NCBI GenBank assembly: GCA_964606485.1
Contig: CAZSGP010000004.1
Location: 92,365-156,364 of the forward strand
Origin: an uncultured Planctomycetia bacterium
Lineage (GTDB): Bacteria; Omnitrophota; Gorgyraeia; 2-02-FULL-51-18
Direction of reading: 5' to 3'
Length of the DNA stretch: 64,000 bases
Shown: positions 5,101 to 25,818 of the stretch, in pieces
Position numbering within the stretch: the stretch's first letter is position 1
Layout: each line of letters starts with the position of its first letter
Program-made: the position numbers and the translations under genes
The notes under the pieces: model-generated
The model's input: the letters and a program-made list of their open reading frames with translations, nothing else
Database searches by the model: none
What the model was told of the DNA's origin: nothing

Positions 5101-6487
5101 AGGAAATGCCTTTTTGCCGAAGCAAGCTCTTAAGATTGGGTGTGTGATAACCGCCAGCAATCAAAATAGCCGAAAACCCAGAACGGGTCCTGCCGGCGGT
5201 TGTCCGTTCGGACTCGCTCGCGTTTAACCGCGGCTCGCCGAGACGGATGCCTACCGCCGTCACCCGTTTTGGGTTTTCGTAAAGCTTAGACAACATATTT
5301 TCAACAAATGCTTCATCGCGAGCGCACGTTAATTCATAAAATCGCTCCGCTTGCTCCACGCTTTCATCGAACCCTTTTTCCAAAAATAGCGCTCTCTCGT
5401 AAAATGCGTGCTGTTCTGTGATTTTTTTATTTAAGAAAGCCGTGAGTTCCGTAAGTTTCCAATTTTTGGAAAGGGCGCGGTACTCGCTGTACTCTTCGGG
5501 ACTCAGAGTCAATTGAAACAGCTTCTTATAAAGCTTCAGTTGCCGCTCGCAGATTCGCAGATCTTTTTCGTCAGCGGATTGCGCTAAAACCGAGAAAACA
5601 AGCTCCTCGAGTGCTTTTTCTTCCTTGAGAACTTGCTCGGGCCCCAGTCGTTTAGAGGCTTTGAGATAATTAAAATAAGCTTTCTCGTGTTGCGCTTTTT
5701 TTACATCAATTTTGGATTCTAATTGCCCAAGCGCCCGTAGCCGTTTTAAGTGCGTGAATTTTTCGGTAGGAATTTCTAAAAATTCAGCCTGGACGAGCAA
5801 TAATTTTACAAAATCGGTGAATGCCAGTAACCCGCTATGGTAGGCATCCGCCTTTGCCTGAAACGCCAAAAGGCGCGGACGGTAAAGACGCGGTTTTAAA
5901 ACGTCAATTGCGGTTTGAATTTGAGAAAGATAGGCCCCGAACTTTTCGCGCTCGGCGGCCACGGCGCGGTAAGATTCGATCGCTTCCTTATATAAGGCGA
6001 AGTTTTCCACGCCCCAGATTGTGAAATCGAGATTTGAGGTGAGGTCCAGATATTCTTCGCCGTGGAGCAAGCCTTGCTTCAAATACGATTGGGCAACTTG
6101 TTGTCTCAGTGCAGTACTTCCGTGCGTACGAAGCGTGGAAAGCGAAACGTTTCCGGATCCGGCTTCGACGAAAATATTCGCGGCGTTTCCATTCCCACGT
6201 ATGCGCGAATCGTTCTTGAGAATAATTTCCAAGGTCTTCGCTAGATTCATCTGTCCGGAAGTGTTGGTGTGCGCGTCTTCGAGTAAATACACTGTCATTC
6301 CCGCGGAAGCGGGAATCCAAGCATCCTCAACACTGGCTACACTCTCCGGAATTTTAAATGAAAGTTTCGCCTTCTGTTCTAAACCAAGGTCAGATGGCCG
6401 CAGCTCTCCGGCCGCAAAAGCAACTGGCTCCGCTAAAAGAGCCAAGATAAGCGCCAGTGAAATGGTTCTTAAAAAACGAAAATTCAT
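2126..6487 (-). CDS. Large secreted hypothetical protein (1453 aa) with N-terminal signal peptide
   Basis: The long ORF begins MNFRFLRTISLALILALLAEPVAFAAGE, a cleavable signal peptide. I recognised no catalytic motifs. TEKTP tripeptide-containing repeats occur. A family-A repeat is embedded in-frame at aa ~408-434. Confidence 0.6.
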   Translation of the reverse strand: MNFRFLRTISLALILALLAEPVAFAAGELRPSDLGLEQKAKLSFKIPESVASVEDAWIPASAGMTVYLLEDAHTNTSGQMNLAKTLEIILKNDSRIRGNGNAANIFVEAGSGNVSLSTLRTHGSTALRQQVAQSYLKQGLLHGEEYLDLTSNLDFTIWGVENFALYKEAIESYRAVAAEREKFGAYLSQIQTAIDVLKPRLYRPRLLAFQAKADAYHSGLLAFTDFVKLLLVQAEFLEIPTEKFTHLKRLRALGQLESKIDVKKAQHEKAYFNYLKASKRLGPEQVLKEEKALEELVFSVLAQSADEKDLRICERQLKLYKKLFQLTLSPEEYSEYRALSKNWKLTELTAFLNKKITEQHAFYERALFLEKGFDESVEQAERFYELTCARDEAFVENMLSKLYENPKRVTAVGIRLGEPRLNASESERTTAGRTRSGFSAILIAGGYHTPNLKSLLRQKGISYFVIRPQVYQETNQARYEKILLGQKFEERSVLSPMQNLSRTVSIAMEPNVIGPLTKRLGVERSGAGARLGKGYVSETLSQIRLRWKEFVDFILQRYAFDDLIGEPEEPGQSYFPNRLAQDLRHNPDAAILKEQSGENLFFYAFRVASGRFIKIRHDVGLESLDVFYPSYAADFTPIVFNVTRRKNRAAYDEITEILTARTQGARLANFDYTEKTPARNTFDRTEKTPLAEVKKGAVRASDSAPIFHRPSDNHYTFDEFLNLKLKGPQPVHITFMQGNRNKVQTVKVVYLEIKRDEISYYSKTPDEGDMGLYSKRRDRVIWIERIYPPTNPNAGGLKGGSLGARLASTTEILTHLSTMAAALGISAWTLSHVTRDFYRYVKKLWRDLPQYAKLEADLQTIRQEIMKRYESGYYLTALLYEEPGLKEKSYEHVMITHQDLHKQIDEFFDRVWQYADNEQSPRLPQSFKSDVIGTVLTVFPEYAEIGTGARLSLPEPTEKTPVPLDLQAATPVPQNPKVESSVSSEARPKGSLTFDQLYQIRDQLISLDTMLLISRRERGRTTPTIFKALYYGFETSKLDGEPTPSLKLVYFPRREKATYQTLESKRGETFDWIQVLGSIKDGTSRYIRGARLPIDPVDAKAVKDLFLGMIFSGRLNQTTKYALAIQDEFKNTNVFVPLFKDNKLTVLFSGEEVKELEIPDVQSALTLFKKDLSVTAQAEQEARANAFIIDQSGETAKQIQVAPRKRKQEGRAEIQFDVLSRLVASDEEFFEIVKVIKTYIEANRSRRFVFTGVLSETVPPNRQKSINAVESYFDKNKKSSKREDQDNYRIIGKSHRYEVVTKVLFKSASEIRNVEQLKKDVKLAPNELAVFVEVGENSIPNILTGLAMAGGLAHDFTDYFRANSQSVRRDGKIHLGNRYEDLLKAVEDSQYLKVLSVCALDKNSPRSAKDLIEFVTGQNFSVAPAYTLRSVLEVVGSRLSAFQTMQEAVGVAA
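5181..5268. repeat. Family-A palindromic element, copy 2, inserted in-frame inside the 1453-aa CDS
   Basis: GGGTCCTGCCGGCGGTTGTCCGTTCGGACTCGC...GAGACGGATGCCTACCGCCGTCACCC is translated on the minus strand as ...[24 protein letters not shown]... without a stop codon. Confidence 0.6.
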
Positions 6488-12139: not shown

Positions 12140-13210
12140 ATGAAAAAGACGATTCTCTTAAATCCAGGCCCCGTCAATGTCACCCCCAGTGTGCGCCGCG
12201 CCCTTCTCAAGCCCGATATTTGCCACCGGGAACATGAGTTTTCCACACTTTTACAGTCTATCCGGACGCGGCTTCTCAAAATTTTCTCAGTGGAGCGCTC
12301 GCATACGGTTGCTTTTTTTTCGGGGTCCGGCACCACAGCGCTCGAAGCGATGCTCTGCGCCTCTGCCGCTGAAGGTAAAAAAGTACTGGTTCTCTCCAAT
12401 GGAGTTTATGGGGAACGCATCCAAAAAACGCTTCAAATTCACGAAATCTCGTCGATTGTACTAGATTCACCCATCGGGGAATTTCCAAATCTTCATTTGA
12501 TTGAAGAAACGCTTAAAAAAAATCCTGCCATTGAGTCGGTAGCGCTCGTGCATCACGAAACATCAAGCGGCATGCTCAACCCTCTAAAAGAAGTTTCGGC
12601 TCTTGCTAAAAAATACGGCAAGCTCGTTTTTGTAGACGCCATTAGCTCACTTGGCGCAGAAACCATCCATTTTAAAAATATCGATTACTTGGCGGGAACC
12701 TCGGGAAAATGCCTGCACGGCTTTCCAGGCGTTTCATTCGTCTTTATCGAAAAAAAGGCGCTCCCGAGACTGAAGAGCCTAAAAGTTCGCTCGCTGTCCT
12801 TCGATCTCTGGAATGCGTTAGAGCATCAATTGCAAAATGACACGCCGTTTACGCCGGTCGTTCAAATTTTTTACGCGTTCGATCAAGCACTCAAAGAACT
12901 CGAAAAGGAAACGTTGAGCCGGCGCATCCGCCGCTACGAAGAAAAAGCGACGCTTCTCGAAAAAGGTTTTGAAGAAATGGGGATTCAATTTTTAATTTCC
13001 AAAAAAAATCGCTCCCACGTGCTCACTGCTCTTTGGACACCGGCGTCCGTGTCCTACGCCACCCTGCACGATACGCTCAAGAAAAAAGGGTTTGTGATTT
13101 ACGCTGGCCAATCCTCGCTCAAAGGTAAAATTTTCCGTGTCGCGAATCTCGGTGATGTTTCTATCCAGGACTTAAGACGCTTTCTTGCTGCCTTCAAAAA
13201 AAGTTTATGA
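12140..13210 (+). CDS. Class V aminotransferase, 2-aminoethylphosphonate:pyruvate transaminase (PhnW)-like
   Basis: The ATG at 12140 gives MKKTILLNPGPVNV. The segments SNGVYGER, HHETSSGMLNP, VDAISSLGA, GKCLHGFPGVSFV and FRVANLGDV track the PhnW/AGXT-family conserved blocks. Confidence 0.65.
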   Translation: MKKTILLNPGPVNVTPSVRRALLKPDICHREHEFSTLLQSIRTRLLKIFSVERSHTVAFFSGSGTTALEAMLCASAAEGKKVLVLSNGVYGERIQKTLQIHEISSIVLDSPIGEFPNLHLIEETLKKNPAIESVALVHHETSSGMLNPLKEVSALAKKYGKLVFVDAISSLGAETIHFKNIDYLAGTSGKCLHGFPGVSFVFIEKKALPRLKSLKVRSLSFDLWNALEHQLQNDTPFTPVVQIFYAFDQALKELEKETLSRRIRRYEEKATLLEKGFEEMGIQFLISKKNRSHVLTALWTPASVSYATLHDTLKKKGFVIYAGQSSLKGKIFRVANLGDVSIQDLRRFLAAFKKSL

Positions 13211-13890
13211 GCGCACCGTCCGTCATTCCGCCGAGTGAGAGTTTTAAATTAAACCGTTTTTTGGCTGAGCCTTTTACGCGGCTTCTTCTAAAAACACCAC
13301 TAACGCCCAATCAAGTCACAATCCTGAGTCTAGCGTTTGGCGTCCTAAGCGGCTGGTTCATTTCATTTGGTAGCTTCATTGGTTTTGTCAGCGGAGCACT
13401 TGCATTTCAAATGGCAGCGGTGCTCGACAATTGCGACGGCAATATCGCCCGCGCAAAGAATATGCGGAGTGAGTTTGGCGGCTGGCTTGACGTGTTTTGT
13501 GACGTGCTCGTCGACATCGCCTTCTTTGTGGGTTTAACAGCCGGCGTCAAAGCGGCCGGGTTTCACGGTCCCATTTGGATAGCGGGATCGCTCTGCGTGG
13601 CCGGAAGTCTGATGAATTTTTGGGTGGTCGTCACCGAAAAATTAAAAGGGTTTGGTCCGGCCGTGTTCAATCAGTCTAACCCCAAGGAAGCTAAGCGCAG
13701 AAACTGGCTCTACAAAACTGCTGATGCCCTCCGCGAAGGCGATTCCTCCTGGTTTATCCTACTCTTTGCTCTTTTTTCAAAAATGGACTGGTTGTTGTGG
13801 AGCTCAGCGGTGTACATGCAGATTATTTGGCTGAGTTCTCTCATCATGAATTTCAAATACATTTTTCTTTCACCCAATGAAAATCGTTAA
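13207..13890 (+). CDS. CDP-alcohol phosphatidyltransferase family membrane protein
   Basis: The signature D-G-x2-A-R-x8-G-x3-D-x3-D is present as DNCDGNIARAKNMRSEFGGWLDVFCDVLVD. Confidence 0.75.
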   Translation: MSAPSVIPPSESFKLNRFLAEPFTRLLLKTPLTPNQVTILSLAFGVLSGWFISFGSFIGFVSGALAFQMAAVLDNCDGNIARAKNMRSEFGGWLDVFCDVLVDIAFFVGLTAGVKAAGFHGPIWIAGSLCVAGSLMNFWVVVTEKLKGFGPAVFNQSNPKEAKRRNWLYKTADALREGDSSWFILLFALFSKMDWLLWSSAVYMQIIWLSSLIMNFKYIFLSPNENR

Positions 13891-14866
13891 ATTTCTTCTC
13901 CTCGGACTCGGATTTTGGCTTCTTTATTTTACGATTCAAAAGGTCGGCTTTGGAAATATTGAAGGCTATCTGCGCCAAATGGGCTGGAGCGCACTCCCCA
14001 TTCTCATTATTTATCCGCTGATATTCTTTTTCGACACACTCGGCTGGCTTTACGCATTTCCCAAAAGCCTCCCCAAACACATTCCGTTTCTGGATCTTTA
14101 TTTTATTCGCATCATCGGTGAGACGATGAACTGCATCATCCCCTGGGCCGCGTCACTGGGAGGCGAGCCACTCAAAGTTCAGCTTTTAAAATCGCGTCAC
14201 GGCATATCCCTCGCCGAAGGCTACGCCTCGATTCTGATTGTTCACACCACGTTTTGGATTTCACTCAACTGTTTTGTGATTGGCGCCATCGTCTTTACGC
14301 TCAAATCGCTTCCGCTCACTCCCATTCTGTGGCACAGCGTCCTCATTTTTCTAGTGGTGCTGGGCGTAGTCGCAGCCCTACTCGTCGCGGGCCTTCACTG
14401 GGGAATTTTTGAAAGATTTCATTCGATCGGTGAAGCGTTTAAGTGGTGGGGGGAACATTCACACGAGAAAAAACAAAAATTTATCTCTCTCGATCGTGAC
14501 ATTAAAACATTTTACACCGAAAATAAATCGCGTTTTTTTCTTTCCAGTTTCTTTAACCTGCTGGGCTGGCTCATGGGAATGTTTGAAGTGTATTTTATTG
14601 GCCGCGCCCTCGGCCTGCCGATCGGAATTACCGAAGCGTGGCTTTTAGAAGCGCTGATTCAGGTTTTGCGCATCGTGACTTTTTTTATCCCCTCTTCGAT
14701 TGGAACCCAAGAAGGCGGAATCGTTCTTATCTTTTCTCAATTTGGATTCGCCGGGCCTGCGAGCCTTGCGTTTGCAATTGTGCGGAGAATCCGCGAAATG
14801 ATTTGGATTGGGTTTGGGCTCGTACTCTGGTCGCTTTTAAGCGATCGCTCAAAAACTACTTCGTAA
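13877..14866 (+). CDS. Flippase-like / lysylphosphatidylglycerol-synthase transmembrane-region family protein
   Basis: An ~8-TM protein of 329 aa, translationally coupled to the CDP-alcohol transferase; architecture typical of the UPF0104/TIGR00374 family. Confidence 0.55.
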   Translation: MKIVKFLLLGLGFWLLYFTIQKVGFGNIEGYLRQMGWSALPILIIYPLIFFFDTLGWLYAFPKSLPKHIPFLDLYFIRIIGETMNCIIPWAASLGGEPLKVQLLKSRHGISLAEGYASILIVHTTFWISLNCFVIGAIVFTLKSLPLTPILWHSVLIFLVVLGVVAALLVAGLHWGIFERFHSIGEAFKWWGEHSHEKKQKFISLDRDIKTFYTENKSRFFLSSFFNLLGWLMGMFEVYFIGRALGLPIGITEAWLLEALIQVLRIVTFFIPSSIGTQEGGIVLIFSQFGFAGPASLAFAIVRRIREMIWIGFGLVLWSLLSDRSKTTS

Positions 14867-16175
14867 AATCCCGCTCGTCGACTAAACGCGCGAGTTTCCG
14901 CTGGGTTCGAAGCGCGCCTCGTGCATGCGGAATAAAATCAATTTTACAAAATTTCATTTGATAAATATTCCACGCATCCGGCAATTCCTTTTTAAGACTC
15001 TTGAAAAAGGCTTCCGAAATTTGTCCGGGATCCCCCACAGCATCCGAGTGCTCCGCGTGGAATTCGATTAAATCCTTCCGGTCTTGTTGCTTGAGCACAA
15101 TTTGCCAGTCCGGTCCAAGCCCTGCGACACCGGAAAACACGGGTTCAAACATCCACGGCGCGATATTCCCAATCGCCGTCGGCACCCATTCATTCATTCG
15201 ACCCTTTAATTTTTCGATGCGGCGACCCGGAAGCCCACTCTTAGAAGGCGTATTGAGAAAGCGTGTCACGTCTCCTGAGCGGTAGCGCACAAGCGGCATC
15301 ACGCGGCGGTTTAAATTCGTGTACACAAGTTCGCCGTAACCTTGCGGATCGGGATTTAAAATTTCAAAAAAATTATGAAATTGATTGAGTTGGTAGCCAT
15401 CCTGCGCCAAATTTTCCATGCCGAGCGCGCCAAAGCCTTCGGTTTGCCCGTAACTTAAAAGAAACTGCGCTTTCCAAATTTTTTCGATGTATCGGCGCGT
15501 GGACTCTGCCATATTTTCGCCGCCGCCAATTAAAAGTTTTACCGGCCAAGCTCCATGCTTTTCGGCCACTTCGCTTAAACCTAGAATCCAGGAAGGGTCG
15601 CCAACAATCACCGTAATTTTATAATCTTTTAAGCGCTCATAAAAATCAGCCGGCGGAATACGCCCGGCTTCGACGTGAAAACAGCCCATCACTTTGCAAC
15701 TTGCTGAAAGCACGGGCCCTGAAACCCAAAACGAATAATCAAACGCACTGGCCACCCGGTCAGTGGGACGAACACCCACTCCCCAGAGACCCACCGCACC
15801 CGCCCAACCCGCCTCCTCAACTTCGTTTCGTGAAAAATAAACGCGCTTGGGCCGCTTGGACGTGGTCCCCGTCGTTTCGTAAGCAGTGTCCGCTTTGAGA
15901 CAAATAAATTCTTCCGGATTTTGACGAAGATCTTCAGCGGTCGTAAAAAAATCTTTTAGATCCTGCGGTGCTTTAACGGTAGAAGCGTCGATATTCAACT
16001 CTTTGAACCGCCTCTTATAAAACGGGGAGTGCTCCGCTACAAATTGAACCGTCTTTCTAAAATTATCTTCTTCGAGACGATGAAGTATTCCGTGGGGAAC
16101 ATTTTTATAAAGCCAAAATCCCCGCTCGGCAGGATTGCCGGCAGGGATTTTGTTAATAAGAGAAACGAGTGACAC
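14856..16175 (-). CDS. Adenylate-forming enzyme, phenylacetate-CoA ligase / coenzyme F390 synthetase-like (acyl-CoA or acyl-ACP ligase)
   Basis: An ANL P-loop variant TTGTTSKRPKRVYFS and a YGQTEGFG motif are present. It is the last gene of the FAS/PKS-like operon. Confidence 0.7.
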   Translation of the reverse strand: MSLVSLINKIPAGNPAERGFWLYKNVPHGILHRLEEDNFRKTVQFVAEHSPFYKRRFKELNIDASTVKAPQDLKDFFTTAEDLRQNPEEFICLKADTAYETTGTTSKRPKRVYFSRNEVEEAGWAGAVGLWGVGVRPTDRVASAFDYSFWVSGPVLSASCKVMGCFHVEAGRIPPADFYERLKDYKITVIVGDPSWILGLSEVAEKHGAWPVKLLIGGGENMAESTRRYIEKIWKAQFLLSYGQTEGFGALGMENLAQDGYQLNQFHNFFEILNPDPQGYGELVYTNLNRRVMPLVRYRSGDVTRFLNTPSKSGLPGRRIEKLKGRMNEWVPTAIGNIAPWMFEPVFSGVAGLGPDWQIVLKQQDRKDLIEFHAEHSDAVGDPGQISEAFFKSLKKELPDAWNIYQMKFCKIDFIPHARGALRTQRKLARLVDERDFTK

Positions 16176-17549
16176 TTATTTGGCGCACTTTTTAATCAAG
16201 AGATCAAACATCTCGCAAGCCAAATCCATCTCGGCTTCGGAGATATCAAACGCCGGCGCGATGGTGAACACGTTTTTGTAATAACCACCCACGTCGAGCA
16301 CCAAACCCATCTTGCCCTTGGAGGTTTGAATGCCTTGCATGCCCGCATGGAAAATGCGGTCTGTCATCTCGCGGTCCGGCGTGTAACCGTCCACCGGCGA
16401 GACAATTTCCATGCGAAGGGCCATGCCCATGCCATCGACATCGCCGATAATTTTCGGATGCTTCTTCTGCAAGTCTTTCAACTTACCTAAGAATATTTTC
16501 CCTTTTTTCTCAATGCCGCCTTGGAAATCGGTTTCCTCGGTCATTTTCATGAGCTCCAAACCCACGGCCGTGCCGAGTGTGTTGGACGAAAATGTCGAAT
16601 GCGTCGAACCCGCACCCCAAACTTTCGGGTTGATTAGCTCTTCCTTGGCCCAAATACCCGAAAGCGGGTTCAAACCATTGGTCAGCGCTTTGCCGAACAC
16701 GATGATGTCGGGCTTCACACCGAAATTGGCCATTGACCAAAGAGGCCCTGCGCGATGAAAGCCCATTTGGATTTCGTCATCCACCAAAAGCACTTTGTGT
16801 TTTTCGAGGATTTTCTTGATCGCTGGAAAATAATTTTTCGGCGGAATCACATACCCGCCGGTGCCTTGAATCGATTCGGCATAAAATGCGCCAAATTCCG
16901 ACTCACCCGCTTTAAAATCCCAGACACCGTTGTATTCGGTTTCAAATAATTTTTCAAACTGGTCCACGCAGTACATGCCACAATCCTCCGGCTTTTTGCC
17001 GTAGGGGCAGCGGTAGCAGTAAGGATACGGCACAAAATGCGCACGGTCCGAAAAGTGCCCAAAGCGCCTGCGGTACCGGTAGCTCGACGTAATCGCCGAA
17101 GCGCCCAGCGTTCTGCCGTGATAGCCGCCCATGAACGCGAACACTAAATTTTTCTTGGTGTGTTGGCGCACGATCTTCAGTGAGTCTTCCACTGCCTGCG
17201 CACCACCCACGTTAAAATGCACGCGGCCTTTTTCACCGAATAGTTTTTCTACCGAAAGCGCGATTTTTTCCGATAGTAGCACTTTTTCTTCGTGCAAATA
17301 CTGGCAAGCCAGCTGTGGCAATTTATCGATTTGCTTTTTTAGCGCCTCGCCTAAGCGTTTGTTGTTGTAGCCGAAGCTTGCGGCCGAATACCACATCTGA
17401 AGGTCGAGAAATTTATTGCCCTCACGATCGTAAAGATAGCTACCTTCACAGCGGTCAAAAAATTTCGGAGGTTCGAGGTAGTGCACGGTATCGCCGTACG
17501 AACAATATTTGGCTTCTTTCTCAAGAAGTTCTTTTTCAGAAAAGCTCAT
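16176..17549 (-). CDS. Class III (PLP fold type I) aminotransferase
   Basis: 457 aa, with the PLP-lysine context IVFGKALTNG and the conserved DDEIQMGF block. Confidence 0.75.
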   Translation of the reverse strand: MSFSEKELLEKEAKYCSYGDTVHYLEPPKFFDRCEGSYLYDREGNKFLDLQMWYSAASFGYNNKRLGEALKKQIDKLPQLACQYLHEEKVLLSEKIALSVEKLFGEKGRVHFNVGGAQAVEDSLKIVRQHTKKNLVFAFMGGYHGRTLGASAITSSYRYRRRFGHFSDRAHFVPYPYCYRCPYGKKPEDCGMYCVDQFEKLFETEYNGVWDFKAGESEFGAFYAESIQGTGGYVIPPKNYFPAIKKILEKHKVLLVDDEIQMGFHRAGPLWSMANFGVKPDIIVFGKALTNGLNPLSGIWAKEELINPKVWGAGSTHSTFSSNTLGTAVGLELMKMTEETDFQGGIEKKGKIFLGKLKDLQKKHPKIIGDVDGMGMALRMEIVSPVDGYTPDREMTDRIFHAGMQGIQTSKGKMGLVLDVGGYYKNVFTIAPAFDISEAEMDLACEMFDLLIKKCAK

Positions 17550-18184
17550 GAATTCTCCTTATTGGCGCTTAACCACTTTGTAATTTCTTTAAACGTTGAA
17601 TATTCTAAATGTTCGATTTTATTTTCCTGACAATACTTCAGTAGTTTCTTTTTCGCAAAAACAATATCCGCCGTGTGCGCGGCAAAGCGGTCCGAGAGTC
17701 CGTCGCCGATAAATACAGTCGTGTGCCCTGATTTTCGATGCTTCTCGATCACATCGACCTTGCAATTTGCACACCCATGTTTGCAGGGCGTCTTTTTATA
17801 AAAGGATATTTTGGGGCCTTGCGGAGTAAACAAAATGCTATTGGAGTAGATCGGCATAGTTTGGCCCATCACGCGCTGAATCACAAAATCAAGGCCGTCA
17901 CTGACAATGCTCGCCGGAATATGATGCTCTTCTATGACATTTAAAAAATCTTCAAATCCCGGATCAATCCGAACTTCCGTTAACATCTTCGCGAGCGACG
18001 CCTTATCCGCTTTCACAAGTTCAAATTGCCGCGTGAGGCATTCCCGCGAACCAATTTTCCCGCTCGCCCATTCTTCTTCGATGGTTTTCCACGAGGGGTC
18101 CGCAAATCTTTCTAAAATCATATCGATCACATCGTTTTGTGTGACCGTGCCGTCAAAGTCGATAAAAAATTGAATTTTTTCCAT
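17546..18184 (-). CDS. HAD-superfamily phosphatase, MtnX-like
   Basis: HAD motif I FIDFDGTVTQND; a Cys cluster CKHGCANCK; a C-terminal IGDGLSDRFAAHTADIVFAKKKLL block paralleling Bacillus MtnX. Confidence 0.65.
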   Translation of the reverse strand: MEKIQFFIDFDGTVTQNDVIDMILERFADPSWKTIEEEWASGKIGSRECLTRQFELVKADKASLAKMLTEVRIDPGFEDFLNVIEEHHIPASIVSDGLDFVIQRVMGQTMPIYSNSILFTPQGPKISFYKKTPCKHGCANCKVDVIEKHRKSGHTTVFIGDGLSDRFAAHTADIVFAKKKLLKYCQENKIEHLEYSTFKEITKWLSANKENS

Positions 18185-19453
18185 TTAATCCTTAAAGCGC
18201 TTCACAACCAGCGCCACGTTTTGACCGCCGAATCCAAAAGAATTACTCAAAACAGAATCGACTTTCGCTTTCCGCGCGTGATTGGGAACGTAGTCTAGAT
18301 CACAGTCCGGATCTGGGTTCTCATAATTAATCGTCGGTGGAATGATCCCTTCGCGGATCGTGAGCACGCTTGCGATGAGCTCCACCGCCCCCGCCGCGGC
18401 AATCATGTGTCCGAGCATTGATTTGATCGAGCTTACCGGAATCGACGAAGCACCCATTCCAAATACCTGCTTGATCGCCAAAGTTTCCACTTGGTCGTTG
18501 AGCTGAGTCGACGTCCCGTGTGCGTTGATATAATCCACGCCTTTTCCGGACAATTGCGCGTTTTCTAGAGCAAGCTTCATGGCGCTGATGGCGCCGCGCC
18601 CTTGCGAATGTGGATCGGTCAGCCGATACGCATCCGCCGTTGTTCCGTAACCGGCAAGTTCCGCATAAATCGTCGCCCCGCGTTTTTTAGCGTGCTCGAG
18701 CTCTTCTAAAATCAGTGCCCCCGCGCCTTCAGCAAGTACAAATCCATCCCGCGCTTTATCGAATGGTCTTGACGCTTTTTGAGGCGCATCATTTTGCGTG
18801 GAAAGAGCCGTTAAAAGATTAAAACCCGCGACTCCGAGCGGATGAATCATCGAATGCGCGCCACCCGTTAAAATCACGTCCGCTTCACCCCCGCGGATAA
18901 TTTCAGCGCTTTCCCCGATCGCTTGGCTCGACGCTGCGCACGCCGTTAGACAATTCGAAATAATTCCTTCCGCGCCGAAGTGATCCGCCAAATGCCGAAT
19001 CACCGCTTGAGGCTCTTGTTCGGCGAGAGACTGCGCATCCGCCATTTGAAGTGTGTTGCGAATATAAGACGCTGCGTCTACATGTTCGTGTCCGTTTAAA
19101 ATAGATTTTGAAATAATTGACGCGTAGCTAGGAAAATTAAACCCACCGTCTCCCGCCCCAAAATACACACCGAAGCGCTCAGGCTTAAAATGGTTTTTAA
19201 GTTTAGCGTCGTCGAATGCTTGCTGACTTGCCGCCAAAGCAAAATGACTATTGCGGCCGAGCTTCTTTTGTTTCGAAAAATCAAAATGCTTCACCTCACC
19301 GGCAATTTTGGTCGGAAACGATTTGGCGTTAAAAATGGAGATGGGCGCAATGCCGCTTTTTCCGTCAAGCAGTGCTTTCCAGGTTTCGGCCACGCTATTG
19401 CCAAGCGGTGTAACCGCTCCGATTCCAGTAATCACTACCCTTTTGAGAGACAT
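18185..19453 (-). CDS. Beta-ketoacyl-ACP synthase II-type ketosynthase (catalytically intact)
   Basis: The catalytic Cys is present in LTACAAS, and both His residues are present in NAHGTST and [11 protein letters not shown]; 422 aa. Confidence 0.9.
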
Positions 19454-19456
19454 CGA

Positions 19457-20704
19457 TTAACCCTTAAACGTTTCAATGATCACGGAAGAACTGGGTCCTC
19501 CGAGACCAAAACTTGTAACCAGCGCGCGCTGAAGCGGCACAGATACCGCATTTTGTTTCACCACTTTAAAATCAAATGGAATCGCCGCTTGTTCGAAATT
19601 TTGAATCGGTCCGATTTGTTGCGCGTTGAGTGCCTTCACGGCAATCAGAAGATCGAGCGCGCCGGATACAAAACCGGTAAATCCTGTCACAGGCTTCGAC
19701 GCGCTCACCCAAGTCTCTTTCGAATGGCTTCCAAAATTTTCAGTGAGCGCCTTCATTTCCTGCCGGTCATCGGCAGCAATGCCGATCCCCGACGCCTGAA
19801 TGTACGAAATATCTTTTGCGGTCAACCCCGACTTTTGAAACGCCGCTCGAATCGCATGCGACTGTCCGTCAGATGACGACGAACCGTATCCGGCCACTTT
19901 GGCGTAAATCGTCGCACCGCGTTTTCTGGCGTGTTCGAGTTCTTCAAAAACTAGAAAACAGGCGCCTTCACCCGGAACCAAGCCTTGTGCTTTGTGATCA
20001 AACGGCCGGTACAATTTTTTTGGATCTTTTTGGCCATTTTTTTCGGAGAGACTCTTCAAAGACGCGTACTGCGAATACCCAACCGGATTAATTTTTGATT
20101 CGGCACCACCGGCAAGCATCATGTTCGCCGTTCCGCGCTCGATAATCCGGCAAGCTTCTTCGACCGCTTGAAGGCCGCTCGACGCTCCCGTCGTGATGGT
20201 ATTGCTCGGACCTCTCAAATCAAAAAGAATTGAAATGTGACAAGCGGGCATATTGGGCAAATATTTTAAAAGCCAGAGTGGAAAAAGTGCGTGGAGCCCT
20301 TCTTCGCCAAATCGCTCTAAACTTAAATCACCCTTTTCGTCGTAGGAACTTTTAACCGATGACGCGAGTTCGTCTAGCTCGTGACTCAGGACACCGGCAC
20401 CGACCGTGATTCCCGCCTTGTCGTGATCGAGCTCTGAAAGATTAATCTTAGAGTCTTCCATCGCGAGTTTCGCAGCCCCCACGGCCATTTGAATATCGCG
20501 GGCCATGACTTTGATAGACTTGCGATTGGCAATGTAGCGCTCAGGATTAAAATCCTTGAGATACGCTCCCGTTGGATTCCAGCCGTCAAATGACAAATCT
20601 TCAATCGCAGAGCGCCCGGAAATCCACGCGTCCCAAAGCGGCGTAACCCCTTCACCAGCGGCGCTTAAAACGCCTAAGCCTGTGATCACCACTTCGCGCT
20701 TCAT
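19457..20704 (-). CDS. Ketosynthase homologue lacking the Cys-His-His triad (chain-length-factor / KS-beta-like)
   Basis: Full-length KS fold of 415 aa. The aligned positions read TITTGASSG (no Cys), IQASGIGIAADD (no His) and KPVTGFTGFVSGA (no His). Confidence 0.75.
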   Translation of the reverse strand: MKREVVITGLGVLSAAGEGVTPLWDAWISGRSAIEDLSFDGWNPTGAYLKDFNPERYIANRKSIKVMARDIQMAVGAAKLAMEDSKINLSELDHDKAGITVGAGVLSHELDELASSVKSSYDEKGDLSLERFGEEGLHALFPLWLLKYLPNMPACHISILFDLRGPSNTITTGASSGLQAVEEACRIIERGTANMMLAGGAESKINPVGYSQYASLKSLSEKNGQKDPKKLYRPFDHKAQGLVPGEGACFLVFEELEHARKRGATIYAKVAGYGSSSSDGQSHAIRAAFQKSGLTAKDISYIQASGIGIAADDRQEMKALTENFGSHSKETWVSASKPVTGFTGFVSGALDLLIAVKALNAQQIGPIQNFEQAAIPFDFKVVKQNAVSVPLQRALVTSFGLGGPSSSVIIETFKG

Positions 20705-21177
20705 CGGGCTTCACTCGCTTGGGCGACTTCCATGACTTGGTAATGCTCCATAAACCCTTCATTAAAAACAATTTTTTTGTCCTGCGACGCATCTAGCGAA
20801 TCAATGCTCATTAAAAGAATTTCGGCACTTGCCACTTTTTCGTCTTCGCACCAGACTTCGCCCCTGACCACCGCGCCGCTTTCGCTTTCTTCACGCAGTT
20901 CCACCTCGATTTCCAGTTTACAAGGAGGTGTCACCGCTTTATAAAATTTTGATTCCGAAATTTTCACCAAAATCACTTCTTTTTTAAATTCGAGCCCTAA
21001 CCCAAACAAAACGCCTCCCGTTTGCGCGATCATTTCTACAAAAAGCGGCTCGGGAACGCGTGGGTTGCCTGGAAAATGTTCAGCAAAAAAATCTTCTTGG
21101 CCCGAGTATGCTTTTAAAGCACGGGCGTAACTTCCCTTTTTTAGAACTTCAAACTTGTCGACTAAATGCCAGCGCAC
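20701..21177 (-). CDS. FabZ/FabA-like 3-hydroxyacyl-ACP dehydratase (hotdog fold)
   Basis: HFPGNPRVPEPLFVEMIAQ matches the dehydratase active-site motif HxxGxPxxPG. Confidence 0.75.
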   Translation of the reverse strand: MRWHLVDKFEVLKKGSYARALKAYSGQEDFFAEHFPGNPRVPEPLFVEMIAQTGGVLFGLGLEFKKEVILVKISESKFYKAVTPPCKLEIEVELREESESGAVVRGEVWCEDEKVASAEILLMSIDSLDASQDKKIVFNEGFMEHYQVMEVAQASEAR

Positions 21178-21479
21178 AAAGCCACCACATGGTCTTTGGA
21201 ATTGACGAAGCGGATTTTAAAATTTCTTTTACGCGAAGAAGATAGAATCTGAATATTTTTGAAGCCCTCGGTTCCCATCCAGGGTTCGTGTCCGGCTTTG
21301 AATGCCGCTTCTTTAGCGGCCAGAAGTTTGGCTAAATTTTTGTAAGGACTGCGGTGTCTTGAAATGAATCGGATTTCTTTGGAGTTAAAAAAGGATTCCA
21401 GGCGATTTTGGTGATTTTTGTAAAACTCGCGGGCTTTGCGGTATTCCACCAAATCCACGCCCAGAGAAATTTTTTCCAC
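21162..21479 (-). CDS. acpS: Holo-ACP synthase (4'-phosphopantetheinyl transferase, AcpS type)
   Basis: ISLGVDLVEY and LAAKEAAFKA match the AcpS motifs. The start is placed at the GTG at 21479, 5 nt after the ACP stop. The longer ORF reaching 21593 would overlap the ACP gene by >100 nt. Confidence 0.55.
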   Translation of the reverse strand: MEKISLGVDLVEYRKAREFYKNHQNRLESFFNSKEIRFISRHRSPYKNLAKLLAAKEAAFKAGHEPWMGTEGFKNIQILSSSRKRNFKIRFVNSKDHVVALCAGI

Positions 21480-21484
21480 TTTTT

Positions 21485-21883
21485 TTAGGACTTTGTGACG
21501 GCTAATTTCTCCGTAAGGTAATCCACAATCATACCGACCGTGAACACGTCGCCGAGATTGGCGACAACAGGATTTTTGGAAAATTCCGTCCATTTTCCAC
21601 TGGGAATTCTTTTTTTGAGTTCTTCTAGGCCTGCCGACGTCACACGCCCTTCTTTGACGAAGTTCGGATCCGTCAATAATTTCTCAGGAAAGAGCTCGCC
21701 CTTCGGAATTTTAATTTTAAATGCTTTTTCCAAACGAAAAACAATGTCCAGAAAATCAATGGACTCGGCGCCCAGATCTTTAATGAGCGAAGCTTCAAGT
21801 GTGATCTTGGCTTCCTCGGCCCGCAAGGCTTGGCCGATAATGTTTTTAACTTGTTTGATAATTTCTTGCTTATCGTTTGTCAC
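21485..21883 (-). CDS. Acyl carrier protein with ~55-aa C-terminal extension
   Basis: The phosphopantetheine attachment context DLGAESIDFLD lies in the first ~70 aa. The total length of 132 aa is unusually long for an ACP. Confidence 0.7.
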   Translation of the reverse strand: MTNDKQEIIKQVKNIIGQALRAEEAKITLEASLIKDLGAESIDFLDIVFRLEKAFKIKIPKGELFPEKLLTDPNFVKEGRVTSAGLEELKKRIPSGKWTEFSKNPVVANLGDVFTVGMIVDYLTEKLAVTKS

Positions 21884-21900: not shown

Positions 21901-22644
21901 TTATTTACGCCCCAGAAGGCTAATGCCCCCATCCACCGTAAAAATTTGTCCGGTGATGTAGCGCGCCTTTTCCGAAGCCAAAAAGCAAACCATGTCCGCT
22001 ATTTCCTGGGGCAATGCAAAACGCCCCAGCGGAATTCTTTCTTTAATCTTGTCCCCAAACGCGGAGCGCGCTGCTTCCGACATTTGCGTTTCCACCATGC
22101 CGGGCGACACCGCATTCACCGTCACGTTTTTCGAAGCCAGTTCCGACGCGAGTGATTTTGTAAACGCGTTGATCGCTCCTTTTGACGCCGCATAATTGGT
22201 CTGGCCAACTCCGCCAAGCTCTCCCACAATCGAGGAGAGATTGATAATAGCGCCTTGACGCTGAGAAACCATGGGCCGCGCTGCCACCTTACAAAACCGG
22301 TACACGCCGCCGAGATTGGTCTCCAGAACGTCCTGCCAATCTTCATCCGAGAGAGTTAAAAAAAGCCCGTCTTTGATGATGCCGGCATTATTCACCAAAA
22401 TATCGATCCGCTCTTCTTTCGATAAAATTTGATCCACACAATCGTCGACACTTTGAGCGTTTTTGACGTCACAAACGATGGCGCGGTCGAGCGGCAATTT
22501 CAATTTCTTTAAAAGAACTTCGGCGTCGGTCTTTGACTGACGCACCGTAAAATAAACTTTAGCGCCCTGCTCGACGAGGCCTTCTACAACCGCGGCGCCA
22601 ATTCCCTTCGAGCCGCCGGTCACAAGTGCCACGGCTGTACTCAC
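21901..22644 (-). CDS. fabG: 3-oxoacyl-ACP reductase (SDR)
   Basis: VALVTGGSKGIGAAV Rossmann motif, NNAG, and the YAASKGAI catalytic YxxxK. Confidence 0.9.
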   Translation of the reverse strand: MSTAVALVTGGSKGIGAAVVEGLVEQGAKVYFTVRQSKTDAEVLLKKLKLPLDRAIVCDVKNAQSVDDCVDQILSKEERIDILVNNAGIIKDGLFLTLSDEDWQDVLETNLGGVYRFCKVAARPMVSQRQGAIINLSSIVGELGGVGQTNYAASKGAINAFTKSLASELASKNVTVNAVSPGMVETQMSEAARSAFGDKIKERIPLGRFALPQEIADMVCFLASEKARYITGQIFTVDGGISLLGRK

Positions 22645-23039
22645 AGCGCTTCGAGCTCCAATGTTGCGACAAAAACCTTCGCTTTTGTCTCGGGCGCTAT
22701 CAAATCAATCCGCCCTTCAAACCGGGCTTTGGATTCCTTTTCGTCTATAAGCCGAGAAAAAATTTTAAGCGTACTGCCCGGTTTTACAAAATAACCAAAT
22801 TTCACGTCCATAGCCGACACTAAGCGAAAATGACTGTCGCTTGTCTGTTTTTTTTCGGCTAAAAATTTTGCTGAAACTTGCTTCACAGCCTCTAAAAGCA
22901 GAACGCCCGGCATCACCGGGAACGATTCAAAATGATCCTGTAAAAACTCTTCGGACCCTTTGAGTGTAAATAAAGCCGTCATCGAGTCGGCACTCGCTTG
23001 CTCGACCCGGTCCACAAACGTAAATACTTTCAAAAACAA
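22641..23039 (-). CDS. Second FabZ/FabA-like hotdog dehydratase
   Basis: DHFESFPVMPGVLLLEA dehydratase motif; 132 aa. Confidence 0.7.
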   Translation of the reverse strand: MFLKVFTFVDRVEQASADSMTALFTLKGSEEFLQDHFESFPVMPGVLLLEAVKQVSAKFLAEKKQTSDSHFRLVSAMDVKFGYFVKPGSTLKIFSRLIDEKESKARFEGRIDLIAPETKAKVFVATLELEAL

Positions 23040-23102: not shown

Positions 23103-23867
23103 TTAGGAGTCAGATTTGGACAGTTCAGCCCGTCTTTGGGCCCTTAAATCTTGAACAGGATTGCCGCCCCAGTAGCTTCGGGGGGGCACTCGCGTGCCTT
23201 TGGGCACAAAACTGCAGGGCGCAATGGTCGAACCATCCCCAATTTCCACGTCCGGCATGATCACGGAGTTGATTCCGATCGAAACGTTATTCCCAAGCTT
23301 CGTGCGAGCCAGACGAATAAAACCCCTCTCCGACGCATGGCAAATGAGGGCCGTTCCTCCACCCACAAGAACGTGATCTCCAATTTCCAGTAAGGATAGG
23401 TCCGCCAGTCCTCCGGTGTTGATATTCACGCCATTGCCGACTTTGGCGCCCATCAGACGGTAAAACAAAGTTTGGAACGGAGAGATGCGTAGAACATCTA
23501 AAAAGGCGGCATTCGCAATGAGAATCATCGAGTTGTAGCCCATCCAGCGCAAAGACTCCATAGCGTGGATCTTGTACAAACCCGGTTCGATTCTAAACCT
23601 AAAAACATTTTTGGCGAGTACACAAACAAAAATTAGCGTCGTTCCAAATAGAAAATAGCCAATCCCCAGGGACATCGAAAACGCCAAAAGCTTGACCCAA
23701 ACGCCGTAGACACCGGTCGCTTTCCACACCCAATAGAAAAAAGCGATCATGGGGAAAAAGCTAAATCCCAAGATAAGGGCTGCTAAGAGATGCAAGCCGT
23801 AAAGCCATTGCTGGAATCGCTTTTCATCGGCTTTCGCCTGCTTCATTTTTTCATCGGGGGTTGCCAT
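23103..23867 (-). CDS. Membrane-anchored left-handed beta-helix (hexapeptide-repeat) acyltransferase
   Basis: N-terminal TM helices are followed by hexapeptide repeats (VGNGVNINTGGLADLSLLEIGDHVLVGGG..., IGINSVIMPDVEIGDGSTIAP). The start is uncertain: GTG at 23885 or ATG at 23867 or 23846. Confidence 0.55.
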   Translation of the reverse strand: MATPDEKMKQAKADEKRFQQWLYGLHLLAALILGFSFFPMIAFFYWVWKATGVYGVWVKLLAFSMSLGIGYFLFGTTLIFVCVLAKNVFRFRIEPGLYKIHAMESLRWMGYNSMILIANAAFLDVLRISPFQTLFYRLMGAKVGNGVNINTGGLADLSLLEIGDHVLVGGGTALICHASERGFIRLARTKLGNNVSIGINSVIMPDVEIGDGSTIAPCSFVPKGTRVPPRSYWGGNPVQDLRAQRRAELSKSDS

Positions 23868-23912: not shown

Positions 23913-24662
23913 ATGAGCTCTCACAAAAAAACAATCTTTATCAGCGGTGGCACTCGCGGAATTGGGCGCGCCATCACCCTTTCCCAGGCATCGGAAAAAA
24001 CCTGCCTTCTTTTGAATTATCTCCGCGACGAAGAGTCCGCGCTTCAAGTCAAACACGACGCCGAAAAAAAAGGCGCGGAAGTTCATTTGTACGCAGGAAA
24101 TGTCGGAGACACTGAGAATGTTAAATCCATCTTTGAACTGGTTGCGAAAGACCATCCCCGGATTGACGGCCTCATTCACAGCGCAGCACTCGGCGTCTTT
24201 AAACCGGTGCACCAATTGCGGGCCAAAGATTGGGACATTTCGATGGACGTAAACGCTCGCGCGCTTTTAACGCTGACGCAAAGCGCCCTGCCGCTCATGA
24301 AATCGCACGGCGGAAAAATTATTGCGATTTCCAGTCTCGGCGCCGGTCACTACACACCAAACTACGGCGCAATCGGTATTTCAAAAGCGGCTATGGAAAA
24401 TTTAGTGAGGTATCTGGCCGTCGAACTTTCGGTATTTAAAATTCAAGTCAATGCGGTCTCTGGCGGCCTTGTCGACACAGAGTCTCTCAAGATGTTTCCG
24501 GATTCCGAGAAAATGAAAAAAGAATACCTCCAAAAAACTCCCGGTGGACGACTTGGTCAACCCGAGGACATTGCGAGCGTCGTCTCCTTTCTTCTCAGCG
24601 AACAAAGCAACTGGATCATGGGCCAAACGTTGATCGCGGACGGTGGCTATTCTCTCTCCTAA
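23913..24662 (+). CDS. SDR-family oxidoreductase (ketoreductase or enoyl-reductase-like)
   Basis: The FISGGTRGIGRAI glycine-rich motif and the YGAIGISK YxxxK context; 249 aa. Confidence 0.8.
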   Translation: MSSHKKTIFISGGTRGIGRAITLSQASEKTCLLLNYLRDEESALQVKHDAEKKGAEVHLYAGNVGDTENVKSIFELVAKDHPRIDGLIHSAALGVFKPVHQLRAKDWDISMDVNARALLTLTQSALPLMKSHGGKIIAISSLGAGHYTPNYGAIGISKAAMENLVRYLAVELSVFKIQVNAVSGGLVDTESLKMFPDSEKMKKEYLQKTPGGRLGQPEDIASVVSFLLSEQSNWIMGQTLIADGGYSLS

Positions 24663-25818
24663 TTTGATCTGGGACGTTCTTTTAAGTCTCATTGGCCTTG
24701 AGTGGTTGAGACGTGCGGTTTGGGTTTCACTTCTTAAAAAATCTCATCCTCCCCTCGAAGCGCGGCGATTTTTAAATCCCACGGCACCGTTTGTCTCCAT
24801 CATCGTTCCGGCAAAAAACGAAGAAGCCAATATCGAAAAATGCTTAAGCTTTCTTTTTAAACAAGATTACCCTAACTTTGAAATTATCGTCGTTAATGAT
24901 CGTTCAACTGACCGCACGGGTCAGATACTGGAAAGTCTTTCTAAAAAATCTCCGGTACCCATAAAAGTATTAACGATTGAAAAATTACCTCCTGGCTGGA
25001 CAGGTAAAAATCATGGCATGTTTGCCGCGTCAAAAGCCGCGCAAGGTGAATGGATTTTATTCACAGACGCGGACACTACCCATGAGCCCCTGTCGCTTGC
25101 CACAGCTTTGGATGAAGCTCTCACCAAAAAAATAGATTTTTTAACACTGTCTCCTGAAACGGAGAGTCACTCGTTTTGGGAAAAAACGGTTCAACCTCTC
25201 GCGGCCTCAAGCCTCGCGCTGTGGTTTGACCCACACAAGGTGAATGATTCCAAAAACCCAGTCGCCTTAGCGAATGGTCAATTTATTCTCGTCAAAAAAT
25301 CGGTTTATGACGCTTCCGGCGGCAATGAAGCGGTAAAAACTGAAGTCGTGGAAGACGTCGCACTCGCGCGACGCACCCGCGCCATGGGCTACTCGGTGTA
25401 TTTCCTAAACGGATCGCGTCTATATTCGACCCGGATGTATTCGTCGCTTTCGGAAATCATCACGGGTTGGACGCGGATTTTGATTTATCTTTTTGATAAA
25501 AATATCCCAGCAATTTTACATAAAATATTTTTATTTTTATTTTTTTCGATTCTGCCTTTTGCAATCGCGCTCTTTGAAAGCATCGCATGGTTCTCCAACC
25601 GAAGCGCTTTTAACGCGCCTCTTTTTGTGGGAAGCCTGCTGGTTTGCAAACTGATTATTGCGCTCCGATTTATCGGAAATAAACTTGTGAAAACAAATCC
25701 CTGGTTTTCATTTCTGCACCCGGTCGGGTCGCTTGTGATGACGTGGATTTTACTGATTTGTATTTGGAGAATTCTTCTAAAAAAATCGTCAGTGTGGCGC
25801 GGAGATTTTTACAAGTAA
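24643..25818 (+). CDS. Family 2 glycosyltransferase with C-terminal multi-TM domain
   Basis: The GT-A features VSIIVPAKNEE, IIVVNDRSTDRT and FTDADT (DxD-like) are followed by several TM helices. Confidence 0.75.
   Translation: MAILSPNLIWDVLLSLIGLEWLRRAVWVSLLKKSHPPLEARRFLNPTAPFVSIIVPAKNEEANIEKCLSFLFKQDYPNFEIIVVNDRSTDRTGQILESLSKKSPVPIKVLTIEKLPPGWTGKNHGMFAASKAAQGEWILFTDADTTHEPLSLATALDEALTKKIDFLTLSPETESHSFWEKTVQPLAASSLALWFDPHKVNDSKNPVALANGQFILVKKSVYDASGGNEAVKTEVVEDVALARRTRAMGYSVYFLNGSRLYSTRMYSSLSEIITGWTRILIYLFDKNIPAILHKIFLFLFFSILPFAIALFESIAWFSNRSAFNAPLFVGSLLVCKLIIALRFIGNKLVKTNPWFSFLHPVGSLVMTWILLICIWRILLKKSSVWRGDFYK

Follow-up and report, generated by a model that had tools for sequence, protein, structure and literature searches.

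A triad-less FabF-like protein as the probable chain length factor of an adjacent ketosynthase in a reducing lipid cluster from Omnitrophota

The protein considered here, KSx, is encoded on the minus strand of a 64,000-nucleotide stretch of DNA (referred to in its entirety as the window) and is, as judged from its sequence, a catalytically dead subunit with the FabF fold. Its most likely role is in an obligate heterodimer with KS, the active ketosynthase (KS) encoded immediately downstream, whose chain length factor (CLF) it would be; we regard this assignment as probable. The two proteins and the sites on which the proposal turns are located as follows.

19457..20704, minus strand: KSx, a FabF-fold protein of 415 amino acids, the proposed non-catalytic partner of KS
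20183..20185, minus strand: codon GCG of KSx Ala174, at the position of the FabF nucleophile Cys163 (codon checked)
19790..19792, minus strand: codon TCG of KSx Ser305, at the position of FabF His303 (codon checked)
19679..19681, minus strand: codon TTT of KSx Phe342, at the position of FabF His340 (codon checked)
20237..20284, minus strand: residues 141–156 of KSx (FPLWLLKYLPNMPACH), helix 2 of the helix-loop-helix (HLH) dimerization motif, where conservation within the KSx family is highest
18185..19453, minus strand: active KS of 422 amino acids, with Cys172, His312, Lys344 and His349 and with Asp102 at the back-gate position of FabF Ile108 (from the alignment, codons checked)

Full-length N- and C-terminal Pfam ketoacyl-synt domains are present in both KSx and KS, which share 30% sequence identity. 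Alignment of KSx with Escherichia coli FabF, by HMMER against chain A of PDB entry 6okg and also by MAFFT, places Ala174 at Cys163, Ser305 at His303 and Phe342 at His340; the lysine is kept, with Lys337 at FabF Lys335 in both alignments. The initial annotation had read the loss of the triad from the motifs TTGASSG, QASGIGI and TGFTGFVSG in KSx, set beside TACAAS, NAHGTST and LGHMIAAAG in KS. All of these motifs are present and mark the sites named above, namely Ala174/Ser305/Phe342 by HMMER and MAFFT in KSx and Cys172/His312/His349 in KS. It had also pointed to an alignment error as the weak point of this reading, and neither the HMMER nor the MAFFT alignment to FabF brings back a Cys/His/His. 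The complete domains and the FabF alignments therefore indicate that the fold is intact and that no shift in the alignment gives the triad back. KSx differs from canonical homodimeric FabF (KAS II) both in lacking the triad and in scoring far under the cutoff of TIGR03150 (277.6 bits, cutoff 493.75). Its monomer model is a complete and confidently predicted FabF fold in which the HLH is the sole low-confidence part, and it is in this HLH that KSx departs from canonical FabF by an insertion and an invariant motif of its own. The Phe400 gate position is occupied by Leu401 in the window protein, and 11 residues of gating loop 2 are deleted in close KSx relatives, including the window protein.

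Both genes lie on the minus strand, so that KSx is transcribed first and KS second; the active KS, which had been described as upstream of KSx, is in fact downstream. The accompanying suggestion that the two genes are adjacent and probably translationally coupled agrees with their spacing. The junction in the window reads TAA-tcg-ATG, a spacer of 3 nt, and in all 44 KSx/KS gene pairs taken from fetched loci for the analysis of spacing and conservation an intact KS has KSx immediately 5′ of it, with −14 to +11 nt from the KSx stop to the KS start in 38 of the 44 junctions and a 4-nt overlap common. At its other end, the KSx start codon overlaps the stop codon of the upstream dehydratase gene DH2 (ATGA). 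The window KS scores 490.3 bits against TIGR03150 (cutoff 493.75) and passes the subfamily model PRK07314. Cys/His/Lys/His is kept in every one of the 44 KS family sequences, the FabF-type gating-loop residues are retained in KS, and an Asp or Glu occupies the FabF Ile108 position in 43 of the 44 (Asp102 in the window).

In dimers of the FabF type, each subunit has its substrate site covered by the HLH of its partner. When both families were aligned with E. coli FabF and scored for conservation (44 KS and 45 KSx sequences), the KS family proved most conserved in its catalytic loops (0.89–0.99, versus 0.55 for HLH helix 2), whereas the KSx family showed the reverse, with 0.90 for HLH helix 2, 0.59–0.72 for the catalytic loops and a whole-protein mean of 0.55. 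Trp144 and Tyr148 of this helix are invariant (45/45 KSx) and fall in the columns of E. coli FabF Phe133 and Thr137, where the KS family has R/K/S/A and Q/S/A/I, respectively; HLH helix 2 of the KS family is acidic and hydrophilic. By residue counts, helix 2 carries a net charge of +1.4 in KSx against −1.3 in KS, and the interacting helix one of +2.2 in KSx and +0.7 in KS. The asymmetry is modest, and by the same counts the whole HLH is net negative in both proteins. Reciprocal conservation of this kind is the pattern that would be expected of an obligate asymmetric heterodimer of the KS/CLF type.

The same helix bears on the possibility that the role of KSx, in a homodimer or heterodimer, is that of a non-catalytic scaffold or of a docking subunit for the ACP, which would stabilize KS or recruit the unusual ACP or the dehydratases and would not set chain length. 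Relevant here is the amxFabFmut/amxFabF2 heterodimer of the anammox 'Cluster I' (PDB codes 9S5H and 9S5I; Granatino et al., bioRxiv 10.64898/2026.05.19.726425), in the ternary complex of which the ACP touches both subunits, and which is active only when co-expressed as a heterodimer; since neither subunit is active alone, stabilization may be the primary role. Translational coupling moreover joins KSx not to KS alone but also to DH2, and one DH2-KSx fusion was found among the homologues (P0017). However, the most conserved element of KSx is a tunnel-facing helix with an invariant Trp and Tyr and not a surface patch, a feature of which a pure scaffold would have no need, and we consider such a role unlikely.

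Among 5.8 billion proteins searched, one is identical to KSx, and the homologues with E < 1e-120, at 50–58% identity, number more than 120; many of these come from Candidatus Omnitrophota MAGs. A scan of GTDB species genomes with two signature peptides gave at least 600 matches, with 581 confirmed relatives, in Omnitrophota and Planctomycetota, the latter including the cultured Kolteria novifilia Pan216 and Gemmata algarum. Among 56 close homologues 58 columns are invariant, covering nearly all of L140–H156 (LFPLWLLKYLPNMPACH) together with Lys337, and KSx is, on this evidence, under purifying selection. Of the triad positions in these homologues, the first holds Ala with rare Val or Pro, the second varies among S/C/A/T and the third is Phe. 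Across the 45 paired KSx homologues the residues listed at the Cys site are A/S/E/D/V/P and never Gln, and the His303 position is S/C/A/T/N in the family.

Invariance in the 56 homologues extends to Cys155, His156 and Lys337, and a different chemistry (decarboxylation, acyl transfer or cyclization) might be envisaged for KSx through Cys155, which is specific to the family and next to His156, or through Lys337. Relatives with Ser/His/Lys/His (L025, L035) or Cys/Cys/Lys/His (L052) exist, and partial reactions such as malonyl-ACP decarboxylation could persist. In the window protein, though, the triad positions are non-reactive or mismatched and gating loop 2 is deleted; ordinary FabFs, like the partner KS, also conserve His156 and Lys337, and the free variation at the His303 position is unexpected of an active site, all of which makes a new activity improbable. 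That KSx is a functionless decaying duplicate is very improbable indeed, for although KSx has lost its triad together with gating loop 2 and the gate at Phe400, the ORF is full length and intact in hundreds of species genomes, close homologues have 50–58% identity and invariant blocks, its translational coupling is conserved and its fold is confidently predicted, so that a decaying pseudogene is excluded as far as sequence allows.

With regard to origin, KSx scores 195 bits against FabF, 157 bits against the actinorhodin (act) KS, 136 bits against both anammox chains of PDB entry 9s5h and 111 bits against act CLF; Iga12 scored below the listed range. FabF is also closest to the KSx family profile (309 bits), and act CLF is absent among the best 60 matches of that profile. 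KS scores 372 bits against FabF and 307 and 236 bits against the anammox chains, where the identification of chain B as amxFabF2 and of chain C as amxFabFmut was made solely by the offset of the N-terminal tag. In a bootstrapped NJ tree of local sequences, none of them a CLF, the partner KSs form one clade (100% bootstrap) and KSx falls in a separate PVC FabF-like clade (100/100) with solitary Planctomycetota proteins. This clade includes catalytically intact Gemmataceae members (C/H/K/H) that carry the same FPLWLLKYLPNM helix, as well as further solitary Planctomycetota proteins in which the Cys is replaced by Glu or Asp. Within the clade the decay of the triad can be followed stepwise through C/H/H, C/C/H (L052), S/H/H (L025, L035) and S/N/N to the A/S/F of the window. 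Related triad-less proteins without an adjacent KS are found in some Planctomycetota, and the KSx clade can therefore exist without one; the neighbours of the solitary homologues in Gemmataceae and Thermoguttaceae showed no fatty-acid context, but exosortase and [FeFe]-hydrogenase genes instead.

The tree and scores together therefore identify KSx as an independent FabF-derived lineage, neither an actinomycete KS-β nor a recent duplicate of its partner. Membership in the KS-β clade (act CLF, AntE, Iga12) was considered and set aside, FabF giving the higher scores and the tree placing KSx in the PVC FabF-like clade. The chain-length-factor-like character originally proposed for KSx accordingly needs to be divided: the lost triad in a preserved fold, the coupled pair, the reciprocal conservation and the anammox precedent speak for it, but KSx stands outside the actinorhodin-type CLF clade. 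Orthology to the anammox pair was also sought through the bit scores against PDB entries, which revealed no special affinity of either KSx or KS for the anammox chains. Common descent with that pair is possible but unproven, because the scores are no better than those against ordinary FabFs.

KSx and KS belong to a run of minus-strand genes that extends from about 14.8 to 23.9 kb in the window. Its other members and their flanking genes are as follows.

12140..14866, plus strand: convergent trio of a PhnW/AepZ-like aminotransferase, a CDP-alcohol phosphatidyltransferase and an HpnL-like flippase-type membrane protein
14856..16175, minus strand: PaaK/DVU_1553-like AMP-forming ligase, the probable activator of the starter unit
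16176..17549, minus strand: class III PLP aminotransferase, the most conserved protein of the cluster (77–84% identity among close relatives)
17546..18184, minus strand: HAD-IB (MtnX-like) phosphatase, abutting the KS stop codon
20701..21177, minus strand: DH2, a FabZ/ApeI-like dehydratase with anammox amxFabZ as its best solved relatives
21162..21479, minus strand: 4′-phosphopantetheinyl transferase (PPTase) of the ACPS family, 105 amino acids (gene call from an identical contig)
21485..21883, minus strand: cluster ACP, 132 amino acids, its last helix preceded by an inserted segment of about 40 residues
21901..22644, minus strand: FabG-like 3-oxoacyl-ACP reductase (KR)
22641..23015, minus strand: DH1, a second FabZ/ApeI-like dehydratase
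23103..23867, minus strand: hexapeptide-repeat acyltransferase resembling the C-terminal domain of Pls/PosA
23913..24662, plus strand, divergent: FabL-like enoyl-ACP reductase (ER) of the SDR family
24643..25818, plus strand, divergent: HpnB/CruG-like GT2 glycosyltransferase

The order DH-ACP-(PPT)-DH-KSx-KS is conserved on identical and related contigs, the convergent trio is kept beside the cluster in close relatives, and a core of ER, DH1, (KR), ACP, DH2, KSx, KS and GT2 is retained in distant Omnitrophota and some Planctomycetota at 37–44% identity. Both dehydratases match Pfam PF22818, and a check on whether DH1 and DH2 might themselves be an active/dead pair found the catalytic His and Glu motifs retained in both. 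The KR, the two motif-intact dehydratases, the ER and the FabF-type gating loop of KS together imply that the line is fully reducing and FAS-like, not aromatic or polyene. By annotation, a complete set of reducing, FAS-like type II functions is present, supplemented by the AMP-ligase, aminotransferase, HAD phosphatase, acyltransferase and GT2. Some 30 further window ORFs that were scanned contained no other fab genes and have ordinary functions (DXS, RNase Y, sulfate assimilation, Kdp). Pfam and NCBIfam models for B12-radical-SAM and phytoene-desaturase-like domains gave no match in the cluster genes or in the ORFs scanned elsewhere, about half (30) of the 60 in the window that reach 150 amino acids.

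Labour within the proposed heterodimer would be split, with KS holding the Cys-His-Lys-His machinery and KSx holding the helix (LFPLWLLKYLPNMPACH) that would wall off the KS tunnel, whereas the corresponding helix of KS would be free to drift because it would cover only a dead site. The KS tunnel would then be lined by the bulky Trp and Tyr of KSx and by the KS Asp at the Ile108 back gate. In FabF, Ile108 lies near C7–C8 of the bound chain and the I108F substitution limits products to about C8; the Trp and Tyr contributed by KSx and the Asp at the back gate of KS thus suggest an acyl chain that is short or medium and possibly polar. The KSx/KS pair would serve a dedicated reducing line with its own ACP, PPTase, FabG-like KR, two dehydratases and FabL-like ER. 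The AMP-ligase would probably provide the starter unit, and conversion of the product to an amino- or glyco-lipid is the probable task of the class III aminotransferase, HAD phosphatase, hexapeptide acyltransferase and GT2. In combining an AMP-ligase, an ACP and a KS with a class III aminotransferase, the cluster is reminiscent of the way in which lipopeptide synthases form β-amino fatty acids. Our guess for the product, reasonable but no more than a guess, would be an amino-acyl lipid.

KS/CLF heterodimers have long been seen as a hallmark of type II polyketide synthases (PKSs). The window presents an analogous, FabF-derived pair in a reducing FAS-like cluster that extends across Omnitrophota, a phylum known almost only from metagenomes, into cultured Planctomycetota such as K. 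novifilia Pan216, whose locus (L043) lies around 6.25–6.27 Mb in NZ_CP036279.1. antiSMASH reportedly annotates clusters of Omnitrophota MAGs as 'ladderane', and these calls may flag the KSx/KS-type cluster. We suggest, tentatively and with some doubt, that the ACP-DH-KSx-KS module is a non-anammox counterpart or ancestor of the core of the anammox 'Cluster I'. Were this so, chain length factors of the fatty-acid type would be an invention shared across the PVC bacteria, to be found in hundreds of species of Omnitrophota and Planctomycetota, and no speciality of anammox bacteria or ladderanes, and the 'ladderane' clusters of Omnitrophota would make a short- or medium-chain amino-acyl lipid instead. 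The KSx/KS pair offers a tractable route to the study of such pairs outside anammox bacteria and opens 'ladderane' biosynthetic gene cluster calls in non-anammox genomes to re-interpretation. The KSx clade also provides a natural series of progressively inactivated KS subunits in which the evolution of a homodimer into an obligate heterodimer could be followed.

With the CLFs of type II PKSs, KSx shares a KS fold without the catalytic Cys and a gene that adjoins that of a coupled active KS. Actinorhodin-type CLFs have Gln at the Cys position, where KSx has Ala, and KSx is nearer to FabF than to act CLF by the bit scores given above. The gene order is also reversed with respect to the actinorhodin KS/CLF (PDB code 1TQY), since type II PKS clusters usually have the KS upstream and here the CLF-like gene comes first. 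Unlike the actinorhodin KS, the window KS keeps the FabF-type gating-loop residues, as would be anticipated of a KS that releases its product in each cycle, and the cluster differs from those of aromatic type II PKSs in being fully reducing, with a KR, dehydratases and an ER.

The Iga11/Iga12 pair of ishigamide biosynthesis resembles KSx/KS in that a KS-CLF serves a reducing FAS-like cycle and the KS has an acidic residue in its tunnel, Asp113 of Iga11, to be set beside Asp102 at the Ile108 position of the window KS. Asp113 is described as repelling β-ketoacyl products in this highly reducing type II PKS. Asp102 is reminiscent of it and the two may be equivalent in position; a 41-residue query of the PDB bearing on this equivalence returned antibodies only. 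ApeO/ApeC likewise combine a KS and an inactive partner with ApeI-like dehydratases, a PaaK-like ligase and a GT2, and the initial annotation had likened KSx to the partner subunit of such APE systems. ApeC is described as half-size, whereas KSx, at 415 amino acids, has both Pfam KS domains and a complete model; on account of this difference in size KSx is not ApeC-like, and this likeness was rejected. An ApeR-type second KS, an MMPL protein and a LolA-like exporter were looked for and not found among about 30 window ORFs scanned with Pfam outside the KS pair.

The anammox pair, described in the 2026 preprint as the first case of a chain length factor found in a pathway to fatty acids, departs from KSx/KS in several respects. 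KSx has Ala/Ser/Phe at the triad positions, versus Val or Thr with Asn/Glu/Cys in amxFabFmut, and the window lineage is without gating loop 2. Radical-SAM and phytoene-desaturase-like genes accompany the anammox pair and are absent from the window cluster, which has an AMP-ligase, aminotransferase, HAD phosphatase, hexapeptide acyltransferase, ER, KR and GT2. In both cases, however, a FabF-derived pair resides in a FAS-like, and not an aromatic PKS, cluster of a PVC bacterium. The anammox order is amxACP-amxFabZ-amxFabFmut-amxFabF2 (bioRxiv 10.64898/2026.05.19.726425), so that the active copy is immediately preceded by the triad-less one, which itself follows a FabZ-like gene and a dedicated ACP, to be compared with ACP-PPT-DH2-KSx-KS here, and the best solved relatives of DH2 are the amxFabZ structures (51 versus 43 bits). 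The HLH of amxFabFmut is disordered in the isolated subunit and ordered in the heterodimer (bioRxiv 10.64898/2026.05.19.726425), and the HLH is the low-confidence region of the KSx monomer model. The HLH and interacting helix of the anammox proteins are negative in the active subunit and positive in the dead one (bioRxiv 10.64898/2026.05.19.726425), and by net-charge counts the modest asymmetry between KSx and KS has the same polarity in helix 2 and the interacting helix; the HLH as a whole is negative in both. Phe135, Thr138 and Val139 of amxFabFmut line the amxFabF2 tunnel and alter its chain-length preference (bioRxiv 10.64898/2026.05.19.726425); the HLH of KSx may line the tunnel of KS in the same way, and from numbering offsets, rather than from superposition, we infer that Trp144 and Tyr148 would be the equivalents of Phe135 and Val139. 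Of characterized systems, amxFabFmut/amxFabF2 is the closest functional analogue of the KSx/KS pair.

Among the loci retrieved for relatives of KSx, the triad-less FabF-fold protein proposed to act as non-catalytic partner of the active ketosynthase KS, several carry a solitary gene, either an intact ketosynthase or a triad-less one.

L050, L057-L063, L068, L072 and L085 (example L063:9854-11281), solitary KS genes of Gemmataceae, Singulisphaera and others
L054, L055, L065 and L077-L083 (example L078:9995-11266), solitary KSx-like genes of Pirellulales and Thermoguttaceae

The solitary KS genes retain a complete Cys/His/Lys/His set, have the FPLWLLKYLPNM helix in common with KSx and form the sister group of the triad-less proteins; at L063 the gene adjoins that of an exosortase, EpsH. 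In the solitary KSx-like genes of Pirellulales and Thermoguttaceae the Cys position is occupied by Glu or Asp and the first His is often retained. These sequences fall inside the paired KSx sequences in the tree, and no KS, ACP or fab gene was found as a neighbour at any of their loci; at L078 the adjoining gene encodes an [FeFe]-hydrogenase.

Partial loss of the catalytic residues is seen among paired KSx homologues. At L025 and L035 only the nucleophile is altered (Ser/His/Lys/His), and at L052 it is retained (Cys/Cys/Lys/His), a distribution of residues that suggests a stepwise loss of activity, with residual decarboxylase activity possibly persisting in these lineages. A further homologue, P0017 (574 residues, on a 2.8 kb ENA contig), appears to join a dehydratase of the DH2 type (the FabZ/ApeI-like enzyme encoded directly 5' of KSx) and KSx in one polypeptide, either as a genuine fusion or as a sequencing or annotation artefact.

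Other genes of the window, within the KSx/KS cluster and outside it, are as follows.

21485-21883, reverse strand, cluster ACP of 132 residues
25872-26675, reverse strand, DUF1571 protein, of a family typical of Planctomycetes
12140-14866, forward strand, PhnW/AepZ-like aminotransferase, CDP-alcohol phosphatidyltransferase and HpnL-like membrane protein
2126-6487, reverse strand, 1453-residue ORF neighboured by a peptidase-MA-like gene and a SCO1/SenC gene

The ACP, 67-75% identical to its counterparts in close relatives, matches the ACP fold over residues 5-68 and 108-127 and therefore carries an insertion of about 40 residues ahead of the last helix. The DUF1571 gene is flanked by an α/β-hydrolase gene with TatC on one side and GT2 on the other, and in several relatives this layout and the cluster are kept in synteny. 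GlmS adjoins the trio at 12140-14866, and its synteny is also kept in relatives. The aminotransferase scores slightly below the cutoff for 2-aminoethylphosphonate aminotransferase (353 versus 361 bits), and no PEP mutase or phosphonopyruvate decarboxylase was detected among the window ORFs scanned. The 1453-residue ORF has no Pfam match.

The active KS itself departs from FabF at the hydrophobic back gate.

19148-19150, reverse strand, KS residue Asp102, within the KS gene (18185-19453)

Ile108 of FabF is replaced here by Asp102, and Asp or Glu occupies the position in 43 of the 44 orthologues. Asp102 may be an analogue of Asp113 of Iga11; alternatively, such a residue may reflect a polar or amine-bearing substrate.
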